DNA of 64,000 bases from Clostridia bacterium (GCA_017513095.1 JAFWDJ010000007.1:39733-103732), one strand, 5' to 3'. Shown: positions 2,093-18,163, counted from the first letter of the stretch. Numbers and translations: made by a program. The notes: generated from the sequence alone by a model not told the origin.

Positions 2093-2137
2093 GTGCGAAA
2101 AAGATGGATTTGCGGTTTTAATGGATGGATTGGAATA
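2093..2137. repeat. Copy X of a ~45-57-bp conserved intergenic element (more diverged copy)
   Basis: gtgcgaaaaagatggatttgcggttttaatggatggattggaata aligns with copies Y (14422-14477) and Z (18107-18163). Confidence 0.6.
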
Positions 2138-2215
2138 CACGATTTGTGATATCACATACATAAAAGAACGGCGCTTCTGTCAAGAATACCGTTCTCATTT
2201 GTTAAAACAATCGCT

Positions 2216-2947
2216 TCAAAAAACCGTTTTTGATATTGCAACGCCGCCCATTCCAAGTGCGTTTTTTATGCCGATCCCTGAACACTCGGAAAAACATATT
2301 AGTATTTTCCAAATATCTAATAATGGCGCCGAAAGCTGCGCATCGACTCGCAGATTCCCGATAAACCCCGGTATTCTGCTTTCCTTCAGCAAATATCGGG
2401 TCGTGTGCAGATTATAATCCGAAATCCGAATACCGTCCGAAAGCATGTGAAAGGCGTCTTCATCTTCCAACGGATAGGTCGGGTAGACCGCATTCCATTT
2501 TTTCAAAAGGCTTTGCAGAATCAATTCTATATCCGGATATACTGTGTATCTTCCCCTCTGCTTAAAAGCAGTGGCCGACAGGAATCGTAGAGAAAAGAAT
2601 CTTTCAGATTCTATTGCTCGGGCATTTTCTATTAGTTTCTCCGCCGCGAAAGTCTCCTTCTTCAATAGTTCAAGCCCGAGCTCTCCCGAATTAAGCGGAA
2701 GTATTTTTAAATCATCCAAAACGGCAGAAAATGCATCGCTTGCAGACCGATCAAGAAGATGTATCCTCCAAAGCACATCTGAATTATCATGATACAGACA
2801 TTGTGAGATTTGCGTCTTTCCCTGTTCATGCAGTTCTTCTGCGTATTCTTCGGATACAAGCGAGATAAGACAGCTATAGAAAGCATATGCGCGCCATGCC
2901 GGGATCTGATCGTTTGTATTCACACGAAAAACATACCTGTTGATCAT
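2216..2947 (-). CDS. cas6: Cas6 crRNA endoribonuclease
   Basis: Last gene of the csm operon. It has the C-terminal glycine-rich Cas6 motif GIGIKNALGMGGV. The start was moved to MINRYVFRV, giving an ATGA overlap with the csm5 stop. Confidence 0.8.
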   Translation of the reverse strand: MINRYVFRVNTNDQIPAWRAYAFYSCLISLVSEEYAEELHEQGKTQISQCLYHDNSDVLWRIHLLDRSASDAFSAVLDDLKILPLNSGELGLELLKKETFAAEKLIENARAIESERFFSLRFLSATAFKQRGRYTVYPDIELILQSLLKKWNAVYPTYPLEDEDAFHMLSDGIRISDYNLHTTRYLLKESRIPGFIGNLRVDAQLSAPLLDIWKILICFSECSGIGIKNALGMGGVAISKTVF

Positions 2948-4050
2948 CTGATCTGCACCCCGCAAACTCCGTAATGATACAGCTTACCCCTATATCTGCC
3001 GTACTTCATCGTATGAGGAGAAATACCGTGCTCGGAAATATCCTTTTCATGATGATGTTTGCTGAACTGTTTTGTCATGATGGTTTCCGTGTACCTCATT
3101 CCGGCATCGGTGCCGAGATACGGATATACCAGCGTTTTTGAAAAGAATCCCGCCCCTCCGCCGAGGATGAGCGCATCCTGATAAGATACGTCGAAAACGT
3201 CGGACGGGGGCTTAAACCGTGCAAGGAACGTCTTCTGATAAAACGCATCAAATCTTCTTATCATTTGCATAAGCGATTCACCCGTGAAATCAGAGGGAAG
3301 CACGGAATGATCCAAGGTGAGTCTGAACTTCAGCTCGGTACCGGGACGAATGCACTCTCTGCAGATAGGCAGCTCTTTTGGCGAGCCCTTTTCGTTCACA
3401 TCGATCTTTCCGACAAGAATCATGTCTTTATGCGAAATCGGCTCGCTGTCAGATATGGAAATACCTCGGAGAATACTGTTGACAGGATCGTTTGCTGTGT
3501 TTGAATATTTGTCCGGCTTTAATGATACCGTGTTCAGATATTCTCCCTCCAGAGTCTGCATCTGCCGGGCTCTTTTATCCTTATTCTGATGACAATCCGG
3601 CCAAATTCCTTTTTTCTCCCTAAAAATCATATCAGTAAGAATCACCGTTCGCAGCGCCCCTTTGACACTGCTGCCTGGAATATACACGCGATGACGGGAA
3701 TCTCTCATGAACGTATGGATCTCTTTAAGGCTATGGACTTCGTCGAGCGCATCGGCAGCGCTGACTTTGTAAAGGCTGAGACTGTCTTGCTCCTTCTCCG
3801 ATATGCCGCAGTTTTTAAAAAACTGCCAAAGCCGTGTATCTCCTGATAAAACAAATCTTTCATAACGATCTGCAAGCTGTTTTTTGTAAAGATATTCAAA
3901 AAACGCTTCCGTATCGATCATACTAACTGTTTTTGCGTTTGAATCAAAAAGATACTCCGTTTTTTTACGTTCGTTTCCGCTCCCGATATACAGAGGAGCG
4001 CGTGTTGTAAGGACCAGGTCATATACCGACAGATGATCAATACTTTTCAT
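2944..4050 (-). CDS. csm5: Csm5 (type III-A RAMP subunit)
   Basis: 368 aa, in the position after csm4. RAMP-like motifs are present (PLYIGSG, IPGSSVKGALRT). It has a 4-nt ATGA overlap with csm4. Confidence 0.8.
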   Translation of the reverse strand: MKSIDHLSVYDLVLTTRAPLYIGSGNERKKTEYLFDSNAKTVSMIDTEAFFEYLYKKQLADRYERFVLSGDTRLWQFFKNCGISEKEQDSLSLYKVSAADALDEVHSLKEIHTFMRDSRHRVYIPGSSVKGALRTVILTDMIFREKKGIWPDCHQNKDKRARQMQTLEGEYLNTVSLKPDKYSNTANDPVNSILRGISISDSEPISHKDMILVGKIDVNEKGSPKELPICRECIRPGTELKFRLTLDHSVLPSDFTGESLMQMIRRFDAFYQKTFLARFKPPSDVFDVSYQDALILGGGAGFFSKTLVYPYLGTDAGMRYTETIMTKQFSKHHHEKDISEHGISPHTMKYGRYRGKLYHYGVCGVQIR

Positions 4051-5021
4051 GGTCTCACCCCCAGAAAGAGCGGCGCGCTCAGACGATAAACAGGATGCTC
4101 TTCAATTTTGCCTACTTCATACAGCACGGCTTTGAATCTTTTAGGCAAAACAGAACCGGCTGACAAAAACAACTGCGTGACCTTTCGGCGATTCTCCTGC
4201 GCGCAGGCGCCGGACTGAATAAAGCCCGCACGGCGCGTCAGCATATATTCCGAATCGGGAAGCAGATCCGTCAGCTCATCCTCGGAAGGCAGACTCGTAC
4301 TCAGCAGGAGCTGTCTCTTGGCCGACGCGTCCTTCAATGCGGAAAACAGCCGCTCCGTGAACGTGTCAAAAGGCTCGTTGAGATAGATTAAATCTTCGAT
4401 ATGGAATTTCCCATAACCCGAGCTGACTTTACCGCCGATCCCGCCAAAAGAGAGTCCTTCGACCAAAGTCTGCAGATCGTCTGCCAGCAGATCTGTTTCG
4501 CAGCCGGCAAGGAACCAGAGACCGGCGTCCTCTTTGAAGTAATAAAGACCGACCTGATAGGGCAAAGCGTCCTCTCCCGGTGTTATTCTCACCTTTGTTG
4601 TGCCTGTGCTTATGCCAAATTGCGCCAGCGCTTTTTCTGCTTCATAAGGGTCGCCGCCGTAGATATAATCAAAAAAAGCGTCAAGATCATCAGCCGGGAT
4701 CCACTTCAGTTTTTTTGCTGCTTTCCGTCCGGTGATCGTTACCGTCCGATCTGTTTTTGCGGTAATGAAAGGCTTTGGCAGATAAAACGTTTCACCCATC
4801 CAGGGCATACTGTCGCTCAAAAGGATATTTCCCTCCTCCGCCTGTCGGCATAATTCCGCCAGCATATCCCGTCCGCCCAGAGCAAGCGCCGTATGACACA
4901 GAGCCGAAAACAAAGTGTCCGCACAAAAATGGTTCTCGGAACTGTACAGCGCCCCGGCGGAAAAAGAGGGACCGAAGTGGACCGCGGTGTCGAACTTCAG
5001 CTTATACAGGTAATAGTTCAT
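4047..5021 (-). CDS. csm4: Csm4 (type III-A RAMP subunit, Cas10 partner)
   Basis: 324 aa. The N-terminus MNYYLYKLKFDTAVHFG is typical of Csm4/Cmr3-like proteins. A glycine-rich FGGIGGKVSSGYG motif is present. It lies between csm3 and csm5. Confidence 0.8.
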   Translation of the reverse strand: MNYYLYKLKFDTAVHFGPSFSAGALYSSENHFCADTLFSALCHTALALGGRDMLAELCRQAEEGNILLSDSMPWMGETFYLPKPFITAKTDRTVTITGRKAAKKLKWIPADDLDAFFDYIYGGDPYEAEKALAQFGISTGTTKVRITPGEDALPYQVGLYYFKEDAGLWFLAGCETDLLADDLQTLVEGLSFGGIGGKVSSGYGKFHIEDLIYLNEPFDTFTERLFSALKDASAKRQLLLSTSLPSEDELTDLLPDSEYMLTRRAGFIQSGACAQENRRKVTQLFLSAGSVLPKRFKAVLYEVGKIEEHPVYRLSAPLFLGVRP

Positions 5022-5667
5022 ACTCTTCCACCTCTTGGAATAACGTTTTCAGTTGAAGGACGTCAAACTCCGTTTCAAAAGGCTTGATGTCAAATTTCCG
5101 CAGGCTGACACGGCCGCTGCCGCGTGTGCCGTGACCGCCGAGATAGTCAAGCTGAAGCAGCTTCATTCCCCTTGCAAGCAGAGCGAAATCTTCTTCGACC
5201 TGGGTCTCGTCCGCAATATCATATACGATTTTAACGTCAAATTCCGTTCCGCGGCTGACGCGTTCGATAAAGCGTGGATTTGCCACGCCGTCGGCGCGAT
5301 TGATACCGTTTTCCGCCTTGACTTCCGTAATCCCGACACGTCGCATTGCGTCCGCATTGGAAACAAAGCAGTCGGAAAACTGCAGTCTTGCCGCACGGAC
5401 CGGCTTAGAGCTTCCGAAAAGCCTCTTTATTCGCTCGTCATCGTCGTCGAACTTCGGCATTTTTTGAATATCTCCGCTGATGCTTCTGGCAAGCAGCGTC
5501 CTCAGCTTTCCCTTAAGACTGCTGCCCGGTACGATCGGCAGACCCGTAAAGGGATCGCGAACGACCTGACTGTCAACTGCGCCGATGGCAGAAAACGCGC
5601 TGGAATCCCCAATGTGCATTCCGGTACATACAACCAGCTTGCAGCGAATCAAAATCTTTCCATACAT
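5002..5667 (-). CDS. csm3: Csm3 (crRNA-binding backbone RAMP, target RNase)
   Basis: 221 aa with the motifs CTGMHIGDS and LPIVPGSSLKGKLRTLL and a C-terminal GGHGTRGSG glycine loop. Confidence 0.85.
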   Translation of the reverse strand: MYGKILIRCKLVVCTGMHIGDSSAFSAIGAVDSQVVRDPFTGLPIVPGSSLKGKLRTLLARSISGDIQKMPKFDDDDERIKRLFGSSKPVRAARLQFSDCFVSNADAMRRVGITEVKAENGINRADGVANPRFIERVSRGTEFDVKIVYDIADETQVEEDFALLARGMKLLQLDYLGGHGTRGSGRVSLRKFDIKPFETEFDVLQLKTLFQEVEEYELLPV

Positions 5668-5669
5668 AC

Positions 5670-6140
5670 TTAACCCTCTCTTCCGCCAATCAGATAGCGG
5701 TGGTACGCGACCAGCGCCTCCATATAATGTGCAAAGTCTATCAGCTTCTCTCTGTCGTCGCCGATACCTTTGATATATTCAAGCAGCTTCGCTTTTTTGA
5801 CGAACTCCTTTACGCTTTCTTCCCTTCCCGCTTCATATACGACACGTATGCGCATCATGGTCAGCGCGGTCCTGCTCTCCGGCAGGAGCTTCGGCTCGTC
5901 ACGCAGATTCTCTGTGTTGTATATATCCGAAACGAGACTGAAAATGTTGCGTATCTTACTCGTTGTGATCGGTTTACCTCTATTTTCTGACAAACTCCGC
6001 ATAACAGCCTCCGCGTCGTCCACATAGTCGTCCGGGAGCGAGAGCGCTTTTACCTCATCGGGCGGCGCCGGAACGCCGTTCCGTTTATCACGGTACTGCG
6101 GCTGATTCCCTTTTTGCCGAAAATTACTGTAGCTGGGCAT
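5670..6140 (-). CDS. csm2: Csm2 (type III-A small subunit)
   Basis: 156-aa helical protein located between cas10 and csm3, the canonical position and size for Csm2. Confidence 0.75.
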   Translation of the reverse strand: MPSYSNFRQKGNQPQYRDKRNGVPAPPDEVKALSLPDDYVDDAEAVMRSLSENRGKPITTSKIRNIFSLVSDIYNTENLRDEPKLLPESRTALTMMRIRVVYEAGREESVKEFVKKAKLLEYIKGIGDDREKLIDFAHYMEALVAYHRYLIGGREG

Positions 6141-8509
6141 TATTCAGTTGCCTCCTTACGATTTTTATAAACATACAAATAGATGGCGGTAATAAGACTG
6201 TTTCTGTCTTTTTCGTTAAGCGACCAGTCCATCACGTGACCGGAAAACTCCCTGTAGCGCGCATATTCGTCGCTTCCTTTGGAAGGAGACAGTCTCGCCA
6301 GCAGATAAGCAAGCCTTGCAAGCGGCACCTTCCGCTGCGGATCGTCCCTTACCTCCCTCAGCAGGTCAAGAATGCGATACAGGAACGCGGTGCCCCGCTC
6401 CGTCTTTGTGTCCTCTTTCGCCGAGAAGAAGTTCTCCAGCACGGCGAGCTTTACGCCCATGATCTCTCTTTCGAATTCTTCCCATGTATACGTATTGCCG
6501 CTTCCCTGCGCAAAAAGAGAAACGGAATCTTTGCCCGGATTCTGCTTCGCTTCGTCCTCCAGGGCCCCGGTCTCCTCCGCGGCGAGGCGTATCGGGTAAT
6601 GATCGTCAAACAGACCTACGCCGCCGCTTATTGTCAGCGCTCCGCAGGCATACTCCTTCAAAGCGCTTCGTATCCTCCGCGCAGCCTCAAGGACGTCGTT
6701 CCATGCTCCGACAAGGAACACGTCATCCCCGCCGGAATAGACTACCGCGACGGCTAAAGCACTTTGTCCTTTGTACGAGCCGTTCAGCAGCGCTTTCAGA
6801 TAAAGCTTGAAGAACAGTGACATTTGACGCGAGAACGCCGCAGTGCGGGATATCGTGACAAAACGTCGGCGCTCAGACGCCGTTGCGCCGCTTTTACTCT
6901 CAAATCCGGACACGAAAGCCTGTCCGAGATCGTCAACGTCCATCCTGCAAACGGCAAGGCGTCTTATACCCTGACTATGCATTGCAAGTTCCTCCATGGA
7001 ATTGCTTTTCGCGTAGTCGCAAACGTAGAGCCGCGTGCTGTAACGCAGTCCCGCATAGCTTACGTTCTTTGTATAGACCCGCAGAACGGGCTTTTCCTCG
7101 CGAAGCGCCCTCCGCGCGGATGGCTCATCCGTGAAAAAGAAGGCCGCCTCGCCGTAATACGTCGGAAGCGTATAGTCCGCGCCCTTTTCCTCTCCGCAAA
7201 GCACAAGATAGACGCCCGTGTTCTGAATCTTGGACGACAGACGTTCAAACGTGCTGCACCAGCGACATAAGTCGCTTCCGTCCTCCCCCCTGATAAGATG
7301 ATCGGTCCTGCCGCAGACACGGCATTCCCTTCCGGAGAGCTCCTCCTTCGTCCGATTCATTTCGATTATCCGCTGCGCCGAATAACGGTGCAGTTTTTTC
7401 TTTGCCACCGCCCGCGAGACCCTGCCGAACATGGCCTGATACGGCGAGTCTTCCGCCGGGCTGTTCGTAAGCTCATCGGCGCTGCATTCCGTATATCCGT
7501 CGGCAAGATAAAGACTGAGGCCGAACTCATCGGCAAGCCAGCCGTTGAACCGATCGTTCCATGCCTCGATCCGCCGCTTCACCTCATCCGTATTCGGTAA
7601 AAGCAGATAGCAGTGTCCGCCGCCGGAATAGAGAAGATTCGCGCGGCTGACTCCGCACGCGGTCAGAAGCTCGTCTATGTAGTGCTCCATGGTCAGCTCC
7701 AGAAAGAAGGAGCGGCTGCGAAGAGAACGAAGCGCGCCCTTCGTCGAGACCGTAAAAATGAACGTCTGTATCCCCGAAAAATCCGCCGAATACAGAAGAA
7801 AGGCCTTCTTGGCGCGAAACTCCTTTTCCTTCTCAAAAAGCGCCGTACGGTAATCCGTCACGGAGGAATCGTAAAGATACAGCGCCATGCAGGACGCCAC
7901 CGCCGCGGTGATCTTCATGTGGTCATAAAGAGACACGTCCGGGCTTTCGGCCGTGTTCGTGCTTGAAGGCACACTGCTCGTCAGACTCTCCAGCACTCCG
8001 AGAATGGAATTGACCCACTCCTCCTCGGGCGGGAGCGTACGAAGCTGTGCCTCAAGCTCACGGCAAATTTCACCGTACTGTCCCGCCGTCAGACGGATCT
8101 CACTTGAAACGGGCATGCGCAGCGTTCCGTCCTGCGGCATGGCGGAAAGCGCCAGGCCGTCATGCTCGCCGTTAAGATGGGTAAATACCGGCGAAAGCGG
8201 CAGATAGCGCTCAAAGCGCCCGCTCTCTTCGGCGGCGCGGCGGTCAGCGGCCGCGGCGATATTATCGGCAGCGTATGCAATATAGGCGAGGCTGTCCGCC
8301 GCAGGCCCCGCCTCACGCAGCTCCGAGGCATGATGCCAGCGCACGCAGTCCGGCGCTTCACCCGGCGAATAGCCCTGCCACGCCTTCTTCAGAAAAGCGT
8401 GACCCGAAGCGCTGTGATTCCCGCTCTCGCCTGCGCGAAAGCAGAGCTTTCCTACGTCGTGCATGAGACATCCGAGCGTGAGCTCCAATATTTTCTGTCT
8501 CAAAAGCAT
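6140..8509 (-). CDS. cas10: Cas10/Csm1 with N-terminal HD nuclease domain and intact GGDD cyclase motif
   Basis: 789 aa. It has an HD motif (LGCLMHDVGK, WHHAS), a zinc-finger-like CRVCG...CRWC and a Palm GGDD (VVYSGGDDVFLVGAW). Confidence 0.9.
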   Translation of the reverse strand: MLLRQKILELTLGCLMHDVGKLCFRAGESGNHSASGHAFLKKAWQGYSPGEAPDCVRWHHASELREAGPAADSLAYIAYAADNIAAAADRRAAEESGRFERYLPLSPVFTHLNGEHDGLALSAMPQDGTLRMPVSSEIRLTAGQYGEICRELEAQLRTLPPEEEWVNSILGVLESLTSSVPSSTNTAESPDVSLYDHMKITAAVASCMALYLYDSSVTDYRTALFEKEKEFRAKKAFLLYSADFSGIQTFIFTVSTKGALRSLRSRSFFLELTMEHYIDELLTACGVSRANLLYSGGGHCYLLLPNTDEVKRRIEAWNDRFNGWLADEFGLSLYLADGYTECSADELTNSPAEDSPYQAMFGRVSRAVAKKKLHRYSAQRIIEMNRTKEELSGRECRVCGRTDHLIRGEDGSDLCRWCSTFERLSSKIQNTGVYLVLCGEEKGADYTLPTYYGEAAFFFTDEPSARRALREEKPVLRVYTKNVSYAGLRYSTRLYVCDYAKSNSMEELAMHSQGIRRLAVCRMDVDDLGQAFVSGFESKSGATASERRRFVTISRTAAFSRQMSLFFKLYLKALLNGSYKGQSALAVAVVYSGGDDVFLVGAWNDVLEAARRIRSALKEYACGALTISGGVGLFDDHYPIRLAAEETGALEDEAKQNPGKDSVSLFAQGSGNTYTWEEFEREIMGVKLAVLENFFSAKEDTKTERGTAFLYRILDLLREVRDDPQRKVPLARLAYLLARLSPSKGSDEYARYREFSGHVMDWSLNEKDRNSLITAIYLYVYKNRKEATE

Positions 8510-8526
8510 CTCTCCTTTCCTTGAGA

Positions 8527-9098
8527 TTGTTCGTCCCCTTGCGGGGTGTAGATTGTTTCGAGGAACAAAAATGAAAACCTATAAGCAGTTTGAGTTTCCG
8601 TCCCCTTGCGGGGTGTAGATTGTTTCACGCGTGGGAAGCATGGGCCGAGACGTACTACGACGTTTCCGTCCCCTTGCGGGGTGTAGATTGTTTCCTGGCT
8701 ACGGAGGCGCATCTACGGCAGGCGACAGAGGGTTTCCGTCCCCTTGCGGGGTGTAGATTGTTTCAGAAGACTTATTTCCTTCCGCTTGAAATCTTCAAGT
8801 TTCCGTCCCCTTGCGGGGTGTAGATTGTTTCCAAAAAAACATATTGAAAGGATGGCAAAACATGGTTTCCGTCCCCTTGCGGGGTGTAGATTGTTTCGAA
8901 AAACTTGCGGAGGCGGCAAAGATCGACAGCGTTTCCGTCCCCTTGCGGGGTGTAGATTGTTTCTTTAAGGTAAGAGGCAACCACGCCCCCGGTCAAGGTT
9001 TCCGTCCCCTTGCGGGGTGTAGATTGTTTCAAAAGGCGTTCAGTTTCTTTTATAGGTCAAAGGCCGTTTCCGTCCCCTTGCGGGGTGTAGATTGTTTC
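8527..9098 (-). CRISPR. CRISPR array: 9 repeats of 33 nt and 8 spacers of 33-37 nt, transcribed on the minus strand
   Basis: Plus-strand repeat is GTTTCCGTCCCCTTGCGGGGTGTAGATTGTTTC, starting at 8594, 8662, 8732, 8799, 8865, 8931, 8998 and 9066. A degenerate copy at 8527 has 3 mismatches at its first 5 nt. On the minus strand the repeat ends in ACGGAAAC, a type III-like 8-nt crRNA tag. It has a palindromic core CCCCGCAAGGGG. The degenerate repeat is the cas10-proximal trailer end. Confidence 0.95.
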
Positions 9099-9145
9099 GG
9101 CAAACATTCATAAAAACACAGGCTTACAGGCCCTTTCTTTTTTAC

Positions 9146-9174
9146 ATTTTACCAAAAAATTTTCATTTTTGCAA
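9146..9174 (-). promoter_or_regulatory. CRISPR leader promoter (TTGCAA, 17 nt, TGgTAAAAT) within the A+T-rich leader 9099-9282
   Basis: The minus strand reads cTTGCAAaaatgaaaattttttggTAAAATg. Spacing is 17 nt with an extended -10 TG. It lies about 45 nt upstream of the first repeat. Confidence 0.6.
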
Positions 9175-9282
9175 GCGCAGCGTGAAAAAAGCGCGGTCTT
9201 TTTCGCTCCGGCACGTCCGATTTTTGTGCGAACGTATCATCGTATGCGGCATATTAAAGAGCTTCAGCGCCGCTGCCCGCGT

Positions 9283-10620
9283 TCAGATCACGCTTTTGAT
9301 GTATTCGATGCATTCGTCATAGACGCCGAAGATCACCGGGTCGCACGCCGGATAGCAGATTCTGATCACGTCTTCGATCTCCTTAAGAAGCTTGTCCGAA
9401 GTGATTCCACACGCGTCTTTTATCTCCTCCTCCGTTACGGTGACGAGCGTATGGGCAAGCCGATTGCGCAGATCCTTAAGTCCGGCGTAATGGGCAAAGA
9501 GCGAACGCGATCTTGGGGGAACGTCCGGGAAAAAGGAAATCAGATCGTCGCACAACATCGTGCTGGCCTCGTTTTGTTTTATTTCCCACCGTCTTTCATT
9601 CATTATCTTTTCATAATGCCGGTAGAGATCCGGACGCACGTCTTTCAGCCTGTCGGGGTAAAATAAGCGGCGGCGTTCCCGCGAGATGAATTTGTCGATC
9701 TCTCCTCCCGTCTTATTAAGCAGCCTGTCAAGCTGCGCCAGCTGCAGCGTTAGCGTAAGCGGCTCCAGATGAAGCAAAAACTGCGTATAGTTACCCGTCT
9801 TCACCAGATTCTTCATCATAAGATAATATTCGCTTGCGTCGCTGTATTCCCTTCGGCTCCCGGTTTTATAGGCATAGAGCTTAAACGGCAGACCCTTTAC
9901 TTCATCGGCAAGCTGCTTTGCGGGCTTTTCCCTGAGTCTGCTGCGTGCGGCAAGGTGCATTGTCAGCGCCCGCACGTTCTCCGGCAGGGATTCTTTCAGT
10001 TTTTCCAGCGCCTCAAAGTTGCGGTCGTCAAGCAGCGTCACGATCTGGCGTCTGAGGAACTGACGTCGTATGGCATACATCTCGGGCTCGACGCAGCGGT
10101 TCTCCGCCTCGGGCAGCTCATCCTCGTTGCATTCCAGCTCCAGCTCGATATCATACTCACTGTGATTGGCGCGTTGGCTCCTGCCCGCCCCCTTCTCGAA
10201 ATTAATGACCTGTATGCCCTTCGCGCGGTATCGTATATCCGTCACAAGCTGCGAAAGTATCATTTGCATCTGCGGAGTGCCGGAGGTGACGTTTACCAAT
10301 ATCTCGGCGTCGTGGTTCTCTCTTGCGAGCCGTGTCATTACTTCGTGGATAGGAATATCCAGCGCGTCGATATCGTGCGCATTCCTGACGCTTAGCTCCT
10401 CGTACCTAAAATCGGGCCGATAGCCGTTCCAGTGCGCCGAAATCCACTCCAGAGTTCTTTCAAACCGTCCGTCCTTCATAGCAAGCTCGCGCATCTCGGG
10501 AGTGAAGATGAGCCATGCGCTTTCCGGGCGATAGTAGCGTAAAATATGCAGCATCGGTCCGTCATGTTCACCGCGCACAGGATCAGTGGTGCCTATACAG
10601 CTCAAAAGAATCTGTTTCAT
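9283..10620 (-). CDS. csm6: Csm6 (CARF + HEPN cyclic-oligoadenylate-activated RNase)
   Basis: 445 aa. The N-terminus MKQILLSCIGTTDPVRGEHDGPMLHILRYYRPE resembles streptococcal/enterococcal Csm6 CARF domains. The C-terminal HEPN R-X4-H motif is RNRLAH. Confidence 0.8.
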   Translation of the reverse strand: MKQILLSCIGTTDPVRGEHDGPMLHILRYYRPESAWLIFTPEMRELAMKDGRFERTLEWISAHWNGYRPDFRYEELSVRNAHDIDALDIPIHEVMTRLARENHDAEILVNVTSGTPQMQMILSQLVTDIRYRAKGIQVINFEKGAGRSQRANHSEYDIELELECNEDELPEAENRCVEPEMYAIRRQFLRRQIVTLLDDRNFEALEKLKESLPENVRALTMHLAARSRLREKPAKQLADEVKGLPFKLYAYKTGSRREYSDASEYYLMMKNLVKTGNYTQFLLHLEPLTLTLQLAQLDRLLNKTGGEIDKFISRERRRLFYPDRLKDVRPDLYRHYEKIMNERRWEIKQNEASTMLCDDLISFFPDVPPRSRSLFAHYAGLKDLRNRLAHTLVTVTEEEIKDACGITSDKLLKEIEDVIRICYPACDPVIFGVYDECIEYIKSVI

Positions 10621-10678
10621 ATTGTTCCTTCCTTTCCGTTTGGTATTCCGCGAATCTTCACGGTTGCTCTGTATTATT

Positions 10679-10707: not shown

Positions 10708-10743
10708 GCAGAAAATCGAACTAATTTGCTGCGGCAATGCAGT

Positions 10744-10772
10744 AAAAAACGCACGCCTAAGCGTGCGCTTTT
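10744..10772. terminator. Bidirectional terminator (duplicate of 2054-2082)
   Basis: The hairpin GCACGC-CTAA-GCGTGC and its A/T flanks are identical to those at 2054-2082. Confidence 0.7.
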
Positions 10773-10828
10773 GGGAAAGGGGCTAAAAAGACGGATTAGA
10801 GTGAAATATCTCCACTCGCGCCCGCAGA

Positions 10829-10895
10829 CATTTCACACGCCGCAGGCGTATTTCACGCGCGAAGCGCGTTTCACAAATCCGTGAAACGGATTTAT
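10829..10895 (+). repeat. Three tandem modules, each ATTTCAC followed by a short perfect hairpin
   Basis: The modules are atttcac-ACGCCgcaGGCGT, atttcac-GCGCgaaGCGC and tttcac-AAATCCGtgaaACGGATTT. A GTGAAAT (reverse motif) sits at 10801. Confidence 0.6.
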
Positions 10896-10902
10896 TTTGT
10901 TG

Positions 10903-10948
10903 ACGCCTCCTGAGGACTGCGAGAAACAGTCTACGGGAGGCGTTTTAT
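10903..10948 (+). terminator. Long hairpin plus T-tract (plus-strand terminator with no obvious upstream gene)
   Basis: ACGCCTCC...GACTGcgagaaaCAGTC...GGAGGCGT followed by TTTTA. Confidence 0.5.
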
Positions 10949-11093
10949 TATACTATAAAAACTCAAAGCCCTTTGAAATCAAAGCGTATCGTGCAAAACA
11001 GGCAGCAGACTCTCTATCAAAATCTGCTGCCTGTTTGGGCTAACGATTATTGTTTTGACATAATCGGGGTTATCGTTAAATTTCATAACGTCA

Positions 11094-11279
11094 CTATTTG
11101 GAAAAATCAAACGAACCTTTAAAAACAGATTGCTGATGAAACTTGAGATACTCCATTCTCTTTTCGTTCATAGGTAATGGTTTTATAAATGTACCGTTCT
11201 TGTCGGCAGCGTAATCCTTCACGAGCTTCAGTATCTTGTTTTGCTCCTCCGGCAGATCGTCGGTCAGGGCGATGTTCAT
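11094..11279 (-). CDS. Small hypothetical protein (61 aa)
   Basis: The ORF has a good RBS (AAGGAG, 8 nt, then ATG at MNIALTDDLPEEQ). The N-terminus vaguely resembles the start of a receiver domain. No family was recognised. Confidence 0.35.
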   Translation of the reverse strand: MNIALTDDLPEEQNKILKLVKDYAADKNGTFIKPLPMNEKRMEYLKFHQQSVFKGSFDFSK

Positions 11280-11345
11280 CTGCGTCACTCCTTCATTGGC
11301 TATAAATAACCATAATATCATACCATATATTTTCCCCGTCCCGCA

Positions 11346-11383
11346 TGTCGATTCGGCACAGATTTCTGTCGATTCGGCACAGA
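11346..11383. repeat. Two perfect 17-bp direct repeats TGTCGATTCGGCACAGA spaced 21 bp start to start
   Basis: Copies at 11346-11362 and 11367-11383, in the divergent intergenic region between 11279 and 11420. Confidence 0.8.
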
Positions 11384-11419
11384 CCCCTTGCTAATCCCGG
11401 CGCATTCCCCTAAATTAAT

Positions 11420-11848
11420 GTGAAACGGCTGCGACTGTTATGCCTGCGGAAAGTGAGGAGATTTGCAGTGAATGCGGTGAACTATTTGAGAGATGACCTA
11501 AAATACGCTTCCACGGCGGGGATCCTGCGGGAAGAATCTGAGCGGATGGATTTGTTTCGAGACCCCCTTGACGGTCACGGGCACTACGACTATCCCTATG
11601 ATTTGGTCGTCGTGGCGCCGGAGGGCGCGAAAGGAATGAACATAGTGACGGAATGGTCGGACCGGTATCCGAACGCCGGGATCATCCGGCTCACCAGCGA
11701 CCCGGGTTTTCTCAAGGTCGCATTCAGCAAGCACCTGAGCGATTTTCTGATCTGCCCGTTCATCGAGAGCGAATTCCGTCAGTCCGTCCGAAACGTTCTC
11801 TACGGACCCTCAAGGAGGAAGCCCCGATGTATGGAGCCAGGCGGATGA
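11420..11848 (+). CDS. Hypothetical protein with a degenerate receiver-like C-terminal half (possible gene remnant)
   Basis: GTG start. The stretch DLVVVAPEG...IIRLTSDP...DFLICPF resembles a REC domain with the phospho-acceptor Asp and the conserved Lys replaced. Coding status is weak. Confidence 0.3.
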   Translation: MKRLRLLCLRKVRRFAVNAVNYLRDDLKYASTAGILREESERMDLFRDPLDGHGHYDYPYDLVVVAPEGAKGMNIVTEWSDRYPNAGIIRLTSDPGFLKVAFSKHLSDFLICPFIESEFRQSVRNVLYGPSRRKPRCMEPGG

Positions 11849-11902
11849 GACTATAGAAAAGCGGCATACCGACCCCACACAATACGAAAGGATCTGATCT
11901 GA

Positions 11903-14066
11903 ATGATGAAAACCACACTGAAATAAAGAGGAATGGCGCTGATGATAGCCCTGGCCATGTGCCTCTTTTTGGGGACGTTCATCCTCCCCCAGCAGGCCAG
12001 GGCAGAAAGCTACCAGACTTTTGACACCTCAAAGACCTAATTCATCTGGCTGAAAGAGGATAACGGGGCGATGAACTATCGCCGGAACGCCAACGGGCTC
12101 AACAAGGAGGATCATATCCACCTGGATGTCCCCTCCGGCGGCAACTGCGTGATGACCTTCAAGGACGGCGGCAGCGGCTATTACGGCATCCGGTTCGAGA
12201 GCCGGTATATTGACACGTCGGAAGACGACAGCAGCACCGGCCAATGGATCCATCAGTGGAGCGAGGATCTGAGCCGGGACAACCAGAAATTCAAATTCAT
12301 CCCGGTGGAGGGCGAGCCTGACACCTATTATATCCAGAGCAAAAAGGGCAATATCTATGTGGGACTGAAGGACAACAAAGCCGCCCAGCACACACCGCTG
12401 AAGACCGTCGACAGCAATCATAAGTGCAAATGGGTGGTGGTGCCCACGGATCGGGTGCCCTTCCCCACCGACAAATCCGAAACCTTTGACACATCCAAGC
12501 AGTACTATCTCTGGCTGAAGGAGGGCGACACCTGTACGTATGACTATCGCTGGAATGCCAACGGGACCGGCTGGAAGGATGAGATCCATCTGGACATCCC
12601 CGCCGGTGCCAATTGCAAGTTTACCTTCAAGGACATGGGCAACAACTATTATGCCATCAGGTTTGATAAACGGTATGTCGACATGAAGGACAACCTGCAG
12701 CAGTTGGGAAGGATCCTGTGGCAGTGGGAAGACGATCCGAACCAGGCCAACCGGAACTTCCGGTTCATCCCGGTGGAAGGCGAGCCCAATACGTATTACA
12801 TCCAAATCAAAAGAAACGGCTTGTATGTGGGGCTGGAAGGCTTCCAGGCTGCGGAACGATATCGGAATCTGGCGTGCGTCGATGCGGACCACGCCTGCAA
12901 ATGGGAGGTGATCTCCACCGATATGACCCAACTTGAGTCCAACGCCAAACTTCCGGGGGCCAGGGAACGCCCTGCCCAGCCGTATCCCCGTGGTGGTCTT
13001 CGACTCCGACGGCGGCAGCAGGGTGCCTTACCAGACGGTCCAAACCGGCCAATGCGCCGTGAAGCCCGGCGACCCTGTAAGAACCGGCTATACCTTCCAG
13101 GGCTGGCAGCTGAACGGCGCGGCCTATGACTTCAGCACCCCCGTCAACGAGAGCTTCACCCTGACGGCCATCTGGAAGAAGAACAGCTCCGGAGGAGGAG
13201 GAGGAGGAGGGGGAGCCGTCACCTATGCCGTCAGCCTGCCCGCGGACCTTGTGAACGCCGTCTCCCATGGAAAAATCGTCTCCAGCCATCTCAGCGCCCG
13301 GTCCGGACAGAAGGTGACCCTCACCGCAAGCCCTGACGAGGGCTGGCTGGTGTCCGGCGTCACCGTGACGGACAAGAACGGCAATGCCGTGACCGTCACG
13401 AAAAACGAAGACGGGACCTTCAGCTTCACCATGCCCTCGGGGGCTGTCACCGTGAACCCCGTCTTTGAGAAGAGCAAGGGGCCGGACGCCTCTGATGCGC
13501 CTGAGTCCTCCGATGTTCCAGACGCCGGGAAAGTCTTCGAGGATGTCCCCGAGGACGCCTGGTACCGCGACGCGGTGCAGTGGGCGGTGGAGAACGGCGT
13601 CACCACCGGCACCGACGAGACCCATTTCAGCCCCAACGCCCCCTGCACCCGCGCCCAAATGGTGACCTTCCTCTGGCGGGCCGCCGGAGAACCGGAGCCT
13701 GCGGGCGGTTCCGTGCCGTTTGGGGATATACAGGCCGGCAGCTACTATGAAAAGGCCGTAGCCTGGGCGGTGGAGAACGGCATCACCAACGGCGTGGACG
13801 AGACTCGGTTTGCCCCCGGCGACACCGTGTCCCGGGCTCAGACCGTCGCCTTCCTCTTCCGCTATGCCTTCCTCTATGCCAAGGCCGACGCGGAAGTCAC
13901 CGATGCGTTTGTGGATGTGTCCCCGGAGGCGTGGTACGCCGAGGCCGTGGCCTGGGCTGCAAAGAAGGGCATTGCTCAGGGCGTGGATGACACTCACTTT
14001 GCTCCCAACGACGACTGCGTGAGAGGACAGATCGTGACCTTCCTGTATCGCCTGATGGCCGGGTGA
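11903..14066 (+). pseudogene. Disrupted cell-surface protein: signal peptide, 2 lectin-like repeats, Flg_new (Listeria-Bacteroides) repeat, poly-Gly linker, 3 SLH domains
   Basis: The reading frame MMKTTLK*RGMALMIALAMCLFLGTFILPQQARAESYQTFDTSKT*FIWLKEDNGAMNYRRNANG has in-frame TAA stops at 11924-11926 and 12038-12040. The second TAA aligns with Y in the internal repeat FDTSKQYYLWLKEG. A frameshift near 12930-12960 joins ORFs 12071..13129 and 12933..14066. The SLH motifs are FEDVPEDAWYRDAVQWAVENGV, FGDIQAGSYYEKAVAWAVENGI and FVDVSPEAWYAEAVAWAAKKGI. Confidence 0.75.
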
Positions 14067-14136
14067 GAAGCAGCAGAGGGCTGAGATTCACCCGTAACGA
14101 TACGCCATAAAAGTTACAAAGAAAACCAAAATAAGA

Positions 14137-14171
14137 GAGACGGGATCGCTGCTGTGGCCCCGTCTCTTTTT
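14137..14171 (+). terminator. Rho-independent terminator after the SLH pseudogene
   Basis: GAGACGGG, 13 nt, CCCCGTCTC, then TTTTT. Confidence 0.7.
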
Positions 14172-14376
14172 GTCTGCAGCATAGTATTCTGTTGCCTCTT
14201 GATTAAACGGTTACACGTCCATTTATAGATGGGTAAACGGTTATCCGGATTATGGAGTGTTCAGATATGAATATTTTTATATTTTTCCGTCACGCGCTGT
14301 CTTTCGTTACAGGAATATGACCGGCCTTGGGGACGGCGTTCAGATATCAAGTCCAATGTCCTCAATAAATACAAGA

Positions 14377-14413
14377 AATCCGAACTCTGCCCTACCGGGA
14401 CAAAGTTCGGATT
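14377..14413 (-). terminator. Hairpin (AATCCGAACT...AGTTCGGATT) downstream, on the minus strand, of element Y
   Basis: 10-bp perfect stem, followed on the minus strand by a T-rich tract cttgtatttatt. Confidence 0.5.
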
Positions 14414-14421
14414 CTCAAGTG

Positions 14422-14477
14422 TGTCTATGGGGTACGTAAAAGATGGATTTGCGTTTTTGATAGATGGATTCGAACCC
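14422..14477. repeat. Copy Y of the conserved intergenic element with a tRNA T-arm-like core
   Basis: tgtctatggggtacgtaaaagatggatttgcgtttttgatagatggattcgaaccc. It differs from copy Z by 2 substitutions and 1 indel (hand alignment). It starts 13 nt after the stop codon of the minus-strand gene 14491..15102. Confidence 0.85.
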
Positions 14478-14490
14478 TCGAAGTAATGAA

Positions 14491-15102
14491 TTATTCTACG
14501 GAAATAATCAACTCTACCGCTCCATTGCCGAGGAGCGATGTAAGTTCTGAACTGTTCAGACCGTCTATTCTTCCAAGTCGAGTATACGCCCATGAATTGG
14601 AACCGTAAAACACAACGATTTGGTTGCCGGAATACAGCATGATATCACCGGCCTCGGTGGTCGTCTGCACGTCGTCTCTCGGAAGACTTGTACCGATTGG
14701 ACCGACCTGCTCGAAGCCGCCGTACATCGACATCTGTATCGCGATCGGCGCTTCCTCTGCAAACTCCCTCAGAGCTGTCACGGATTCGTTATCCTCCCAC
14801 GCGACGTATACTTCCTGCCCGTCGATTTTGAGTATCAGATCGGTTTTCACCGGAGTATCCTCCGTTTTTGGGATTGGTTGGCTGCCCGGCTCTGAGGTTA
14901 TATTCATCTGTGATTCAGTGCTTTCGGTTTTCTCGGGAAGTGCCGTGTCTTCCGCAACTGTTCCGAGCGAATCATTTACAGCTGCTGATACTGCTTCCGT
15001 CGCTTCTGTTTTCGCGCAACCGAATAAGGTAAACAGCAGCAGAAAGGCAATGCAAACCGTTACTTGCTTACGCCAGCGACTTGCCAAACCGGTATGCTTC
15101 AT
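14491..15102 (-). CDS. Cyclophilin-like-fold lipoprotein (putative)
   Basis: The start was moved to MKHTGLASRWRKQVTVCIAFLLLFTLFGC (lipobox). The C-terminal region ILKIDGQEVYVAWEDNESV...GDIMLYSGNQIVVFYGSNSW matches the cyclophilin-like domain family commonly found in LysR-linked clusters. Confidence 0.55.
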   Translation of the reverse strand: MKHTGLASRWRKQVTVCIAFLLLFTLFGCAKTEATEAVSAAVNDSLGTVAEDTALPEKTESTESQMNITSEPGSQPIPKTEDTPVKTDLILKIDGQEVYVAWEDNESVTALREFAEEAPIAIQMSMYGGFEQVGPIGTSLPRDDVQTTTEAGDIMLYSGNQIVVFYGSNSWAYTRLGRIDGLNSSELTSLLGNGAVELIISVE

Positions 15103-15610
15103 CTTGTTCCTCCTCCTTTCCGTTTGCTTCGCCCGCGTCGGAGATCCCTCCGCAGAACAGCGAGCCCGCAAGCTCCGCCTTTTCAAAGCAATCGACCCAG
15201 CCCTGCAACCCGCTGACGGCCTTTTCGGGAACGTATTCCTCGTCCTCGGTTGCGGTTGAAAGCATATATACCTTGCGGAATTTGTAGTCAGACGGATACA
15301 GCGGATTCAGACGGTCAAGCAGCGTCTTCATCTGTCCGCTCATCTCGTAGTAATAGATCGGGGTTACGAACACGAGCGTATCCGCATTCTTGACCTTTTC
15401 CGCGATCTCAACGGCGTCGTCTTTCAGCACACACTTTTGCGTCTTCTGACAGGCGAGGCAGCCGATGCAGTATCGGACCTCTTTCCCCTTCAGGCTGATG
15501 CACTCCACATCATGCCCGGCTTCCTTTGCGCCCCGAATCAGTTCCTCTGCCAGTCGGTCTGAATTGCTCTTTACCCGCAGGCTTGTTGTGATCACAATTA
15601 CCTTGCTCAT
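15068..15610 (-). CDS. Flavodoxin-like NAD(P)H-dependent FMN reductase / iron-sulfur flavoprotein
   Basis: MSKVIVITTSLRVKSNSDRLAEE...CIGCLACQKTQKCVLKDD is typical of the FMN-reductase fold with a Cys cluster. Confidence 0.7.
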   Translation of the reverse strand: MSKVIVITTSLRVKSNSDRLAEELIRGAKEAGHDVECISLKGKEVRYCIGCLACQKTQKCVLKDDAVEIAEKVKNADTLVFVTPIYYYEMSGQMKTLLDRLNPLYPSDYKFRKVYMLSTATEDEEYVPEKAVSGLQGWVDCFEKAELAGSLFCGGISDAGEANGKEEEQDEAYRFGKSLA

Positions 15611-16608
15611 TTCAGATTCTCCTTCATGAACGCTTCGATCTTATCGAATGGGATGCAGTTGCCTTCGCCGCCGTCGTACAAATCGGTGTGAGACACGCCG
15701 GGGATAATACAGAGTTCCTTGTTGTCCGCGTACTTGCTGTCCTTCACCATATCGGCGTAGGCGTCGCGGCTCATGTAACAGGAATGCGCCTTGTCGCCGT
15801 GGATCATCAAAACGGCGGAGCGGATTTCTTTTGCGTAGGTGAACAGGCGCATATTCATAAGCGAGGTGCCGGCGCTGGCCGCCCAGCCGTCGTTGGAGTT
15901 CAGGGAGCGGGGATGATAGCCGCGGGGAGTCTTATAATAATCATAGTAGTCCTTTACAAAGTACGGCGCGTCCTCCGGCAGAGGGTCGACTACGCCGCCC
16001 GCTCTGACATATTCACCGGTTTTGTAATCCTGCGTCCGCTGTGTATTGACAGCAATTCGCGCTTGATGCCGTGCTTCTTCGTTGTCGGCAGCGTCGAAGT
16101 ACCCGTTGCCGGCTACACGGGACATATCATACATCGTGGACGTCACAGTCGCTTTGACCCTTGTATCGATGCAGGCAGTCTGCAGAGCCATCCCGCCCCA
16201 GCCGCAGATGCCCATAATTCCGATGCGCTCGGGATCGACGTTCTCCTGCACGGACAGAAAGTCTACCGCAGCCTGAAAATCTTCCACGTCAATATCAGGG
16301 GAGTGCATCGCACGGGGGAAGCCGCCGGATTCGCCGGTAAAGGACGGATCGAAGGCGACGGTCAGGAAACCGCGCTCCGCCATCGTCTGCGCGTACAGGC
16401 CGGAAGACTGCTCCTTGCAAGCGCCAAAGGGGCCGCTGACGGCAATGGCGGGAAGCTTTCCGTCCGCATCCTTCGGCGTGTACATGTCCGCCGCGAGGGT
16501 AATGCCGAAGTGATTGACGAAGGTCACTTTCTTATGATCGACCTTCTCGCTTTTTGGGAACACCTTGTCCCATTCCTGCGTTAGCTTCAGTTCTTCTGTT
16601 TTCATCAT
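15607..16608 (-). CDS. Alpha/beta hydrolase family protein
   Basis: 333 aa with a nucleophile-elbow-like GICGWGG and overall dienelactone-hydrolase-like architecture. Confidence 0.65.
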   Translation of the reverse strand: MMKTEELKLTQEWDKVFPKSEKVDHKKVTFVNHFGITLAADMYTPKDADGKLPAIAVSGPFGACKEQSSGLYAQTMAERGFLTVAFDPSFTGESGGFPRAMHSPDIDVEDFQAAVDFLSVQENVDPERIGIMGICGWGGMALQTACIDTRVKATVTSTMYDMSRVAGNGYFDAADNEEARHQARIAVNTQRTQDYKTGEYVRAGGVVDPLPEDAPYFVKDYYDYYKTPRGYHPRSLNSNDGWAASAGTSLMNMRLFTYAKEIRSAVLMIHGDKAHSCYMSRDAYADMVKDSKYADNKELCIIPGVSHTDLYDGGEGNCIPFDKIEAFMKENLK

Positions 16609-16630
16609 GACCGTTTCATCCTTTCAGAGA

Positions 16631-16849
16631 TCAATTCGTTTTTGATTGTCGGATCAGGTAGTCCATGCGATCCACTCGGCGCTGACTCTCGTGCATTTCC
16701 TCCACCAGCTCACAACGCTGTAAACGGAGAAACCGGACAAGTTCATCTCGTGCGTCTCTTTGATAGAGCTCGATCGCCTTTGCGACCGTATCCTGACTCA
16801 TTCCCGCATCTTCCATGCAGTTTTTCAGTGTTTCTGTGTAATCAGCCAT
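16631..16849 (-). CDS. Small hypothetical protein (72 aa), first gene of the operon divergent from lysR
   Basis: ORF with an RBS. The start was moved to MADYTETLKNCMEDAG. No family was recognised. Confidence 0.4.
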   Translation of the reverse strand: MADYTETLKNCMEDAGMSQDTVAKAIELYQRDARDELVRFLRLQRCELVEEMHESQRRVDRMDYLIRQSKTN

Positions 16850-16979
16850 CGGTTGTCGTTCTCCTTGGCTCCTTTTCCCTTGAAGCAATTTCATTATAGC
16901 GTATTGATTTCTTTCTCGCTAATAGTTATAATGAATATCGTGATATTCACAACAGGAATATCAAGGAAAGGGGCTATAT

Positions 16980-17897
16980 ATGGAGATTCGCACTCTGAAA
17001 TACTTTCTCGCCGTTGCGCGGGAGGAGAATATGACCCGCGCGGCCGAGCAGCTTCACGTAACACAGCCCACGCTTTCAAAGGCTCTGAAATCTTTGGAAG
17101 ATGAGCTTGACAAAAAACTCTTTACCCGCCACAGCTTTAGCATTCGTCTGACGGATGAGGGCGTCTTGCTTCGCGAGCGTGCGGAGGATCTGATTAGCAT
17201 GGCAGACAAAATCGAAAAGGAGTTCCTCTCTCTGGACGATATCACCGGCGGGGAGCTTTTTCTCGGTCTTGCGGAGTCCTATCAGATCGCACACGTCGCA
17301 AACGCGATCAAGGCGCTGAAGGAACGCTACCCCAGGCTGCAGTATCACATTATCAGCGGCGATACCGAGCAGATTGCAGGGAAGCTGCAAAAAGGACTTC
17401 TCGATTTTGTCGTTCTTGCGGAAGATCCCGATCCGAGGAAATATGACTTCATCCCTTTCCCGGAAGCGGACGTGTGGGGGCTCGTTTTTCCCGCCGATGA
17501 TCCGCTTGCGGCAAAGGATCAGATCAGCCTCTCCGATTTGATCGGGCTGCCGCTGTTCTGCTCGGAGCAGGCATGGATACACGAATTTAAAGCGTGGGCG
17601 GGCAACAAATACGATGCGCTTCATCTGGAAGGATCGTTTCGCCTGTCCTACAACGGTTCGATCTTTGCAAAAGCCGGTCTTGGCTATTTGCTTACCTTTG
17701 ATAAACTGATCGACGTCTCTCCGGATAGCGGGTTGGTGTTTAGGCCGCTCACTCCGCGCCTTGAAACGAAGTTGTATCTCGTCTGGAAAAAGTATCAGAC
17801 GCACACGCCGATTGCGGAACGATTTTTGGAGCATATTCGCAACACGTTCCACTCGGGAGAAGACACCGTTCAAGAAGAAACCGGATTTTCTCATTAA
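16980..17897 (+). CDS. LysR-family transcriptional regulator
   Basis: The N-terminal HTH MEIRTLKYFLAVAREENMTRAAEQLHVTQPTLSKALKSLE is followed by a LysR substrate-binding domain. It is divergent from the hydrolase operon. Confidence 0.9.
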   Translation: MEIRTLKYFLAVAREENMTRAAEQLHVTQPTLSKALKSLEDELDKKLFTRHSFSIRLTDEGVLLRERAEDLISMADKIEKEFLSLDDITGGELFLGLAESYQIAHVANAIKALKERYPRLQYHIISGDTEQIAGKLQKGLLDFVVLAEDPDPRKYDFIPFPEADVWGLVFPADDPLAAKDQISLSDLIGLPLFCSEQAWIHEFKAWAGNKYDALHLEGSFRLSYNGSIFAKAGLGYLLTFDKLIDVSPDSGLVFRPLTPRLETKLYLVWKKYQTHTPIAERFLEHIRNTFHSGEDTVQEETGFSH

Positions 17898-18053
17898 ACA
17901 AGCCCTTTTGGAGCTGAAATCAAATTAGACACGGGGGTTCGGATCGTAAGACTTTTTCCCGGTTTCCGTTTTGAACTTTTTTGATTTTCGTGTCCAATTT
18001 GAAGTCCAAAATCAAAAGCCCAAAAAACCGCATGAAATCAAGGAAAATAAAAA

Positions 18054-18101
18054 AACATCCTTTGTTGTCCAAACCCGGGGGGTCAGATTGCAAAGGATGT
18101 T
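18054..18101 (-). terminator. Strong minus-strand terminator downstream of element Z
   Basis: AACATCCTTTG...CAAAGGATGTT, an 11-bp stem followed on the minus strand by TTTTTTTATTTT. Confidence 0.7.
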
Positions 18102-18106
18102 TCATT

Positions 18107-18163
18107 TGTCTATGGGGTACGAAAAAGATGGATTTGCGTTTTTTGATAGATGGTTTCGAACCC
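18107..18163. repeat. Copy Z of the conserved intergenic element
   Basis: tgtctatggggtacgaaaaagatggatttgcgttttttgatagatggtttcgaaccc. It starts 13 nt after the stop codon of the minus-strand gene 18177..19418. Confidence 0.85.

Follow-up and report, generated by a model that had tools for sequence, protein, structure and literature searches.

A conserved ~60-bp element as the probable distal arm of integrative cassettes inserted behind tRNA and tmRNA genes in Oscillospirales

The repeated element and the stack behind ssrA

The window analysed here is a stretch of 64,000 nucleotides from Clostridia bacterium (GCA_017513095.1 JAFWDJ010000007.1:39733-103732), to which all coordinates refer unless another locus is named. 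Downstream of ssrA, the gene for transfer-messenger RNA (tmRNA), it bears three copies (X, Y and Z) of a repeated element of ~56 bp, referred to below as RE. Read along the minus strand, the order of features is smpB, ssrA, a succession of blocks ending in Z, Y, a half-copy of RE and X, and then the AMMECR1/LigB gene (Table 1). The blocks contain, among other things, a relic of a serine recombinase gene, a Gut-1 RNA (RF01706; 74 bits) and a type III-A CRISPR-Cas (clustered regularly interspaced short palindromic repeats) system. No tyrosine integrase was seen among the open reading frames (ORFs) scanned in window region 1-22000.

Table 1. Coordinates of the features discussed; positions are those of the window except for the last four rows.
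Feature	Coordinates	Strand	Remarks
ssrA (tmRNA)	20674..21028	-	terminal CCA (20674-20676) is the proposed insertion point
Cassette 1	18107..20673	-	left-end terminator hairpin (~20631-20673), serine recombinase relic, KilA-N protein, 413-aa orphan, RE Z
Serine recombinase relic (cassette 1)	19996-20421		
KilA-N protein (cassette 1)	19464-20072		
RE copy Z	18107..18166	-	subtype A; distal end of ssrA-proximal cassette; terminates ...CCCCATAGACA at 18107
Cassette 2	14422..18106	-	left-end hairpin (~18050-18106), LysR (+ strand), hydrolase, FMN reductase, cyclophilin-like protein, RE Y
RE copy Y	14422..14480	-	subtype A; distal end of LysR/hydrolase/FMN-reductase/cyclophilin-like cassette
Block 3	10772..14421	-	hairpin (~14372-14421), broken SLH/ricin-type surface protein gene (+ strand), Gut-1 RNA (10825-10902), half-RE
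Vestige (half-RE)	10772..10803	-	only the distal RE half (AATCCGTCTTTTTAGCCCCTTTCCCA); fused 24 nt past Gut-1 RNA
Block 4	2082..10771	-	terminator and promoter (D2 copy B, 10618-10777), csm6, CRISPR array, type III-A cas genes, RE X
RE copy X	2082..2140	-	degenerate; core 2093-2137, full extent approximate; ends ...CCCGTCTTCCCA beside presumed ancestral ssrA-side terminator
D2 copy A	1928-2087		same terminator and promoter, past X; AMMECR1/LigB gene next
Tandem serine-recombinase genes, L205	13698-17797		
Tandem serine-recombinase genes, L206	2547-6597		
Tandem serine-recombinase genes, L207	8204-12249		reverse-complemented
Tandem serine-recombinase genes, L209	14401-18453		

An earlier, sequence-only reading of the window had described the three copies and their surroundings, and most of that description was borne out when the sequence was read again. 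X, Y and Z lie where they had been placed. On the minus strand Y (14422-14477) reads GGGTTCGAATCCATCTATCAAAAACGCAAATCCATCTTTTACGTACCCCATAGACA, and Z (18107-18163) is the same sequence with two substitutions and one extra A, in agreement with the two substitutions and one single-base indel reported; X reads TATTCCAATCCATCCATTAAAACCGCAAATCCATCTTTTTCGCACCCGTCTTCCCA, its divergence being found mainly in the first 12 and the last 12 nt. On that strand Y starts 13 nt past the stop codon of the cyclophilin-like gene (14491-15186) and Z, likewise, 13 nt past that of the 413-aa ORF (18177-19418); the two are direct repeats bracketing 14478-18106. X sits at the edge of the CRISPR block, the cas6 stop lying 75 nt before it. 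The vestige is also real: its distal half (AATCCGTCTTTTT..CCCA) and the terminator that follows are held in common with X. One claim stood only in part, namely that a different hairpin follows each copy, which is true of Y and Z but not of X and the vestige; these have a single hairpin in common because both are within a 160-bp duplication (D2 in Table 1). This duplication brackets the type III-A CRISPR-Cas block and runs on into the distal half of RE. An orthologous half-copy stands beside the same terminator in G001, a genome of the same genus, and the duplication boundary would therefore lie inside the recombination site proposed below.

When the whole assembly (45 contigs, 1.99 Mb) was searched by BLASTN, only X, Y and Z were found. 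A profile hidden Markov model built from 112 relatives returned the same three copies and no others (E = 1.9e-12, 9.3e-11 and, for X, 0.0027), all of them within 18.6 kb downstream of ssrA. With only three copies in the genome, RE is not a dispersed repeat of the repetitive extragenic palindromic type. Nor does it recur at dozens of unrelated intergenic sites, there being 3 copies here and 1–4 per genome in relatives.

Cassettes behind tRNA and tmRNA genes

A pattern scan using one genome per species rendered at least 119 stretches, ~115 of those listed being true copies; among the matches listed, nearly all true copies came from metagenome-assembled genomes (MAGs) of gut Oscillospirales. RE is also borne by a strain in culture, Faecousia intestinalis CLA-AA-H192 (locus L073). 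The family consensus is tatGTGAGAGTTCGAATTCATACGCAAAAACnGCnAAAATATCTTTTTTGTAGCCCATAGACA, followed by a variable hairpin. Subtype A, to which the window copies belong together with those of loci L045, L057, L080, L087, L110 and L115, is rarer. Among 401 genomes sampled from the order, 56 had a stricter motif restricted to the distal half, with 1–4 copies each, and its spread over families was very patchy (0/26 in several families, 12/26 in two). RE is conserved at the level of primary sequence, and its distribution is like that of a mobile element.

The genes upstream of RE include tRNAs of nine amino-acid identities as well as tmRNA. Of the 85 copies with enough upstream sequence, 38 lie no more than 600 nt past the end of a tRNA or tmRNA gene on the same strand; as estimated from ~40 tRNA genes per 2 Mb, chance would produce such proximity in well under 1%. 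At many loci the interval from tRNA to RE is made up of a terminator hairpin and an array of short hairpins. Some 24 hairpin-array loci are of Gut-1 type, the Gut-1 motif lying 105–137 nt upstream of RE in the relatives, while further arrays have other linker motifs. At about one quarter of the loci RE is found 1–70 nt past the stop codon of an accessory gene. The accessory cargo, as judged by eye from translations, includes restriction-modification subunits, zinc-ribbon repeat proteins, Abi-like and GNAT proteins, a MATE pump and anti-sigma-like proteins; among cargo proteins the serine recombinase alone was compared with Pfam.

The cassettes begin with the base that follows the CCA of a tRNA or tmRNA gene and finish in ...CCCATAGACA. 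Identical left ends occur behind tRNAs that differ from genome to genome, starting at the first base past the CCA. The first 1160 bp of cassette 1, which ends in Z, are 89.6% identical to a cassette located after tRNA-Tyr in L087, and in L045 two stretches of it reappear (at 92% and 81% identity) in a cassette that follows a tmRNA end. The homology runs from just past CCACCA to CCCCATAGACA; the cargo differs, RE is common, and the flanks part right after ...ATAGACA, the Z-type end being present in L087 and L045 with divergence directly past the ACA. L045 (DFKH01000086.1) is labelled as an Alphaproteobacteria MAG, and bears the Z-type cassette at 92–96% identity after its tmRNA end; mis-binning is likely. 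The 245 bp past Z in the window, which form the left end of cassette 2, are 77% identical to a sequence in genome G036 that starts 2–3 nt after the CCA of tRNA-Gln, so the terminal ACA of RE stands in for the tRNA CCA. Right flanks equal to sequences that follow a tRNA CCA elsewhere were found for 11 of 114 copies. The homologues of the LysR module in cassette 2 proved to be ordinary paralogues or orthologues and no further copies of the cassette, of which the left end and RE alone recur.

G001 lacks the whole 18.6-kb stack, the module bracketed by Y and Z included. In this genome the equivalent of window 1-2111 adjoins ssrA, with ~290 bp between ssrA and the AMMECR1 promoter, and the half-RE is left beside the X-type terminator. 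In G002, of the same genus, a different hairpin-array unit follows ssrA. Taken together, the boundary matches and the differences in G001 and G002 indicate that the whole interval 2111-20672 is accreted material, in which the newest insertion is expected to be the one next to ssrA. The suggestion that the copies of RE are relics of attachment (att) sites, left by serial integrations accreting beside ssrA, is supported by the occurrence of cassette relatives directly after other tRNA and tmRNA genes and by the absence of the stack from G001; it is also backed by the link to one clade of large serine recombinases and by an inverted partner of RE at CCA ends, both described below.

In L090, a full-length large serine recombinase gene (Resolvase, Recombinase and zinc-ribbon domains; Pfam) stops 54 nt before RE. 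Of six homologues with 58–92% identity found in 400 genomes, five have RE 10–45 nt past the stop codon, which brings the RE-bearing recombinase loci to L090, L175–L178 and L184, with RE 10–54 nt past the gene. The recombinase of L179 (61% identity) gave no RE match at E < 0.01, and none of the homologues at 51% identity or less in those 400 genomes had an RE. In the four loci for which the upstream region was fetched, and also in L179, the recombinase is the last of three tandem recombinase genes, of ~510–540, 290–340 and 545–570 aa (Table 1). The closest recombinase in the phage database (MT836354, 65% identical) was considered and set aside, since it is accompanied by a degenerate RE only.

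The genome that contains the window has no intact member of this clade, so its cassettes would be fixed or need a recombinase in trans. What remains is a 68-aa relic in the Z cassette, most similar (40%) to the RE-adjacent recombinase. The relic frame (141 aa) shares 77 nt with the KilA-N ORF (the two spanning 19464-20421), and both are ~90% identical at the nucleotide level in L087; the relic therefore travels with the cassette backbone.

An inverted partner of RE was found in G062, where a recombinase-bearing element of 56 kb follows a tRNA-Leu gene, the nearest upstream tRNA on the same strand (56 kb from the recombinases). The tRNA end reads CCA-TAAAAA-GGCTATAAAAAAGATAT, and GGCTATAAAAAAGATAT is an inverted copy of distal RE, placed 6 nt after the CCA; the box resembling a tRNA T arm is also inverted, further in. 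Other inverted copies of distal RE occur in L140 (after a tRNA-Leu-like end), L040 (after a copy of a tRNA-Gln end) and L037 (directly after another RE). All four are spaced CA-N6-GGCTAY, mirroring the GTAGCC-N6-CA of RE, and G062 has a matching variant in both arms (GGCTAT, ATAGTC). A search for an empty site of the G062 element in three genomes of the same genus gave no match.

Large serine integrases (of the phiC31, Bxb1 and A118 type) use inverted half-sites of ~25 bp around a non-palindromic central dinucleotide, in a site beside the integrase gene, and insert directionally into one unique attB without duplicating the target. The layout found here resembles such an attP, at the level of sequence, with the final two bases of the tRNA CCA as its putative central dinucleotide. 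The RE cassettes are like these systems in their inverted arms, the adjoining recombinase gene, the absence of target duplication and the directional insertion; they differ in the ~60-bp arm, the three tandem recombinase genes, the generic tRNA CCA target and a second arm that is often absent.

The proposed site weighed against its alternatives

From these observations, RE is probably a DNA recombination site, the conserved distal (right) arm, ~60 bp long, of integrative cassettes of Oscillospirales that insert after the CCA of tRNA and tmRNA genes; the window copies would then be stacked insertions behind ssrA. Insertion would take place between the terminal CA of the CCA and the terminator of the same gene, with no target duplication, to give the order tRNA-CCA, a left end that is usually a terminator hairpin, the cargo, an RE terminating in ...GTAGCC-CATAGA-CA, and older sequence. 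The most likely catalyst is the recombinase clade described above, the gene of which lies directly upstream of RE in autonomous elements; it would do the cutting, with CA as the crossover dinucleotide, and RE would represent the recombinase-proximal half of attP, kept as attR. Each new insertion at the same CCA would move older cassettes outward, and the window would hold at least three insertions plus the CRISPR-Cas block, each ending in RE (Z, Y, vestige, X). Cassettes with nothing but a terminator hairpin at the left end, like those of Y and Z and the Gut-1-type units, may move through recombination between two REs, as set out below. A crossover in the middle of RE, suggested by the half-copies of the vestige and of G001, was also considered and found no support in 30 matches to the distal motif: about 25 had a recognisable proximal half, in two this half was diverged or partly deleted, two were chance-like and one was cut by a contig end. 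None of these 30 matches lay directly after a CCA.

Several observations weigh against this reading. The left end of most cassettes, those of Y and Z among them, is a plain terminator hairpin instead of an inverted RE, so a classical attL is missing. The conserved RE is longer than a typical serine-integrase half-site. Hairpin-array units without any RE are found after tRNAs in this same genome, which means that not every tRNA-linked unit needs one. No free attP was found in phage records or in IMG/VR, where canonical RE was present in only one contig, integrated in appearance. Finally, RE nearly always has the same orientation as the gene before it and a terminator after it, an arrangement that would also suit a module acting at the 3′ end of an RNA.

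A more far-reaching form of the site-specific reading, put forward tentatively and on balance unlikely, would make the tRNA and tmRNA CCA ends of Oscillospirales integron-like platforms operated by serine recombinases. RE would correspond to attC; recombination between two REs would loop out a unit of former downstream flank, cargo and RE, which could then re-insert at any tRNA CCA by means of one conserved half-site. Integrons themselves are arrays of diverse cargo in which an attC directly follows each ORF and the newest unit is next to a fixed insertion point, with the tyrosine recombinase IntI acting at attI. The RE cassettes are alike in forming cargo arrays in which each unit ends in a conserved recombination site and the newest lies by the insertion point; they are unlike in having no IntI or attI, no internal imperfect palindrome in RE (0 predicted pairs), promoters of their own and genes on both strands. 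If true, this scheme would explain why what looks like a second-hand tRNA terminator stands at the start of cassettes, why genes of defence systems (type III-A CRISPR-Cas, restriction-modification, Abi-like) gather there, and why orphan Gut-1 hairpin arrays are the commonest cargo.

The position of RE relative to genes raises the question of whether it acts as RNA, as a shared module of 3′ untranslated regions or as the 3′ domain of small RNAs such as the Gut-1-type arrays. Together with its terminator it would set 3′ ends, stability or processing, perhaps via a T-loop-like GGUUCGAAU, and would be only a passenger of the cassettes. RE indeed starts 1–70 nt past the stops of genes with the same orientation, or follows hairpin arrays; 34 loci have a co-oriented ORF before it, and in the 16 whose longest upstream frame runs on the other strand that frame is mostly spurious, extending across tRNAs or hairpin arrays. 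A hairpin resembling an intrinsic terminator comes next in nearly all copies, and a 9-bp long-range stem, paired in 88% of cells, can be drawn. However, RNAalifold predicted 0 consensus pairs from 129 distinct copies, and a covariance-model search of Rfam at E values up to 10 gave no match at X, Y or Z, Gut-1 matching 10825-10902 only. The stem drawn by hand (GGGUUCGAA with UUYGUARCCC, in a two-helix model) was rejected, as it is mostly invariant, has an A.C mismatch in 84 of the 129 copies and shows no convincing or significant covariation. The patchy, mobile-element-like distribution, the inverted copies abutting CCA ends on the other strand and the tight link to one recombinase clade also speak against an RNA function. 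The structured small RNA or 3′ module that the sequence-only reading had offered as its second option thus found no support, and a role of RE as RNA is doubtful.

It is improbable that RE is the right end of a single-strand transposon (HUH/Y1, IS200/IS605-like), or of another non-serine transposon, which inserts 3′ of CA or CCA and uses the left-end hairpin as its second recognition structure. Such an element would account for orientation-specific insertion directly 3′ of a fixed short sequence with no target duplication, for the left-end hairpins and for the plentiful miniature forms lacking genes. Against it, no Y1 transposase or TnpB turned up in the ORFs scanned of the cassettes examined, although no systematic search was made, the large serine recombinase is the only recombinase consistently found beside RE, and the inverted repeats around CA fit a double-strand att site. 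A transposon with terminal inverted repeats was rejected as well: inverted profile matches were present in 3 of 116 loci only, the remaining multi-copy loci having direct tandem copies. A small-peptide gene on the plus strand of the window (MGY.KD.FA...) can hardly be credited, since the ATG-initiated frame of Y and of the family consensus is shifted in Z by the 1-nt indel, has no ribosome-binding site and no conserved stop position, and its variable columns lack a three-base periodicity.

The tRNA T-arm-like core of RE had been taken as a possible displaced 3′ end of a tRNA gene or of ssrA. The likeness to T arms is genuine, but restricted to 11–15 nt, and the core is borne by the element, being unchanged across the nine tRNA identities and tmRNA. 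No likeness to the ssrA 3′ end (GGAGTTCGACTCTCCTCGCCTCCACCA) was found past TTCGA, and the 3′ ends of the 39 tRNA and tmRNA genes of the genome have the T arm alone in common with RE, the best tRNA matching at 18 of 28 positions. The classical tRNA or tmRNA island, as defined by Islander, is closed on its far side by a direct repeat of the target gene 3′ end (PMC4383910). An island of this displaced-fragment kind was rejected, since RE cannot be aligned with the ssrA 3′ end and its best tRNA match is confined to the T arm.

Related islands, hairpin units and significance

The RE cassettes are a variant of the tRNA/tmRNA-targeted integrative elements that accrete in tandem. The closest known system is that of the ssrA-specific genomic islands (ssrA-GIs) of Dehalococcoides, in which a 20-bp repeat of the ssrA end marks the borders and insertion occurs in the T loop; their integration module combines a large serine recombinase similar to CcrB with additional recombinase genes, and the many islands that lack it are regarded as cis-mobilisable or fixed (McMurdie et al. 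2011, PMC3146451). Both systems form tandem islands downstream of ssrA with extra conserved, element-borne sequence at the boundary (PMC3146451). In contrast, the RE cassettes have no copy of the ssrA end, insert after the terminal CCA, have an element-borne arm of ~60 bp and many tRNA targets, and belong to a different phylum; compared with a Dehalococcoides-type island, the window has the tandem stack, a recombinase relic only and no 20-bp ssrA repeat. The tycheposons of Prochlorococcus are similar in being cargo elements at a set of tRNA genes plus tmRNA, forming tandem arrays that build variable islands, some with large serine recombinases; 910 of 937 have tyrosine recombinases, with attachment sites overlapping the tRNA, and many have replication genes (Hackl et al., bioRxiv 10.1101/2020.12.28.424599). 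Unlike the RE cassettes, they have not been described as having a conserved RE-like end or miniature hairpin-array forms (10.1101/2020.12.28.424599).

Two kinds of small unit were noted behind tRNA genes. The Gut-1 motif covers no more than the 5′ half of a ~190-nt unit (at window 10825-10902, L081:2764-2956 and, in the genome of the window itself, C5 ~9624-10100 and C27 past tRNA-Trp), in which three or four hairpins joined by UGAAAU are followed by four with the complementary linker AUUUCA between them. These linkers pair in nested order in the predicted fold (z -4.5), and sister units have complementary linkers of other sequence (for example GCGAUAU/AUAUCGC and AAUGAAG/CUUCAUU), which amounts to linker covariation. 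In the same genome, Gut-1-type units follow tRNA-Ser(gct) and tRNA-Trp in tandem without any RE, and a Gut-1-type array past tRNA-Tyr in C40 (~31068-31550) has a small protein gene directly next to it, no RE being detected in C40. The second kind consists of units of 110–130 nt after tRNA terminators, sometimes in tandem, in L142, L040, L043 and L053 (past tRNA-Gln or tRNA-Ser). Their beginning resembles a tRNA 3′ end in reverse complement, and they finish with an exact copy of the last 21–23 nt of the local tRNA plus the same terminator; ARAGORN called no tRNA in the units of these four loci. They may be scars of a second integration system, of the tyrosine type, or small RNA genes.

No function for Gut-1 is known in the literature, and the motif has been unexplained since 2010; it is now placed inside tRNA-linked units. 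The sequence ...ATCTTTTTTGTAGCCCATAGACA provides a simple landmark for variable islands, often loaded with defence genes, that lie behind the tRNA and tmRNA genes of a large and mostly uncultured group of gut bacteria, and in the window it shows how the 18.6-kb stack behind ssrA was built up, a complete type III-A CRISPR-Cas system included. The serine recombinase clade next to RE appears to target the universal CCA end of tRNAs, which is unusual for serine integrases and could serve as a broad-host integration tool.

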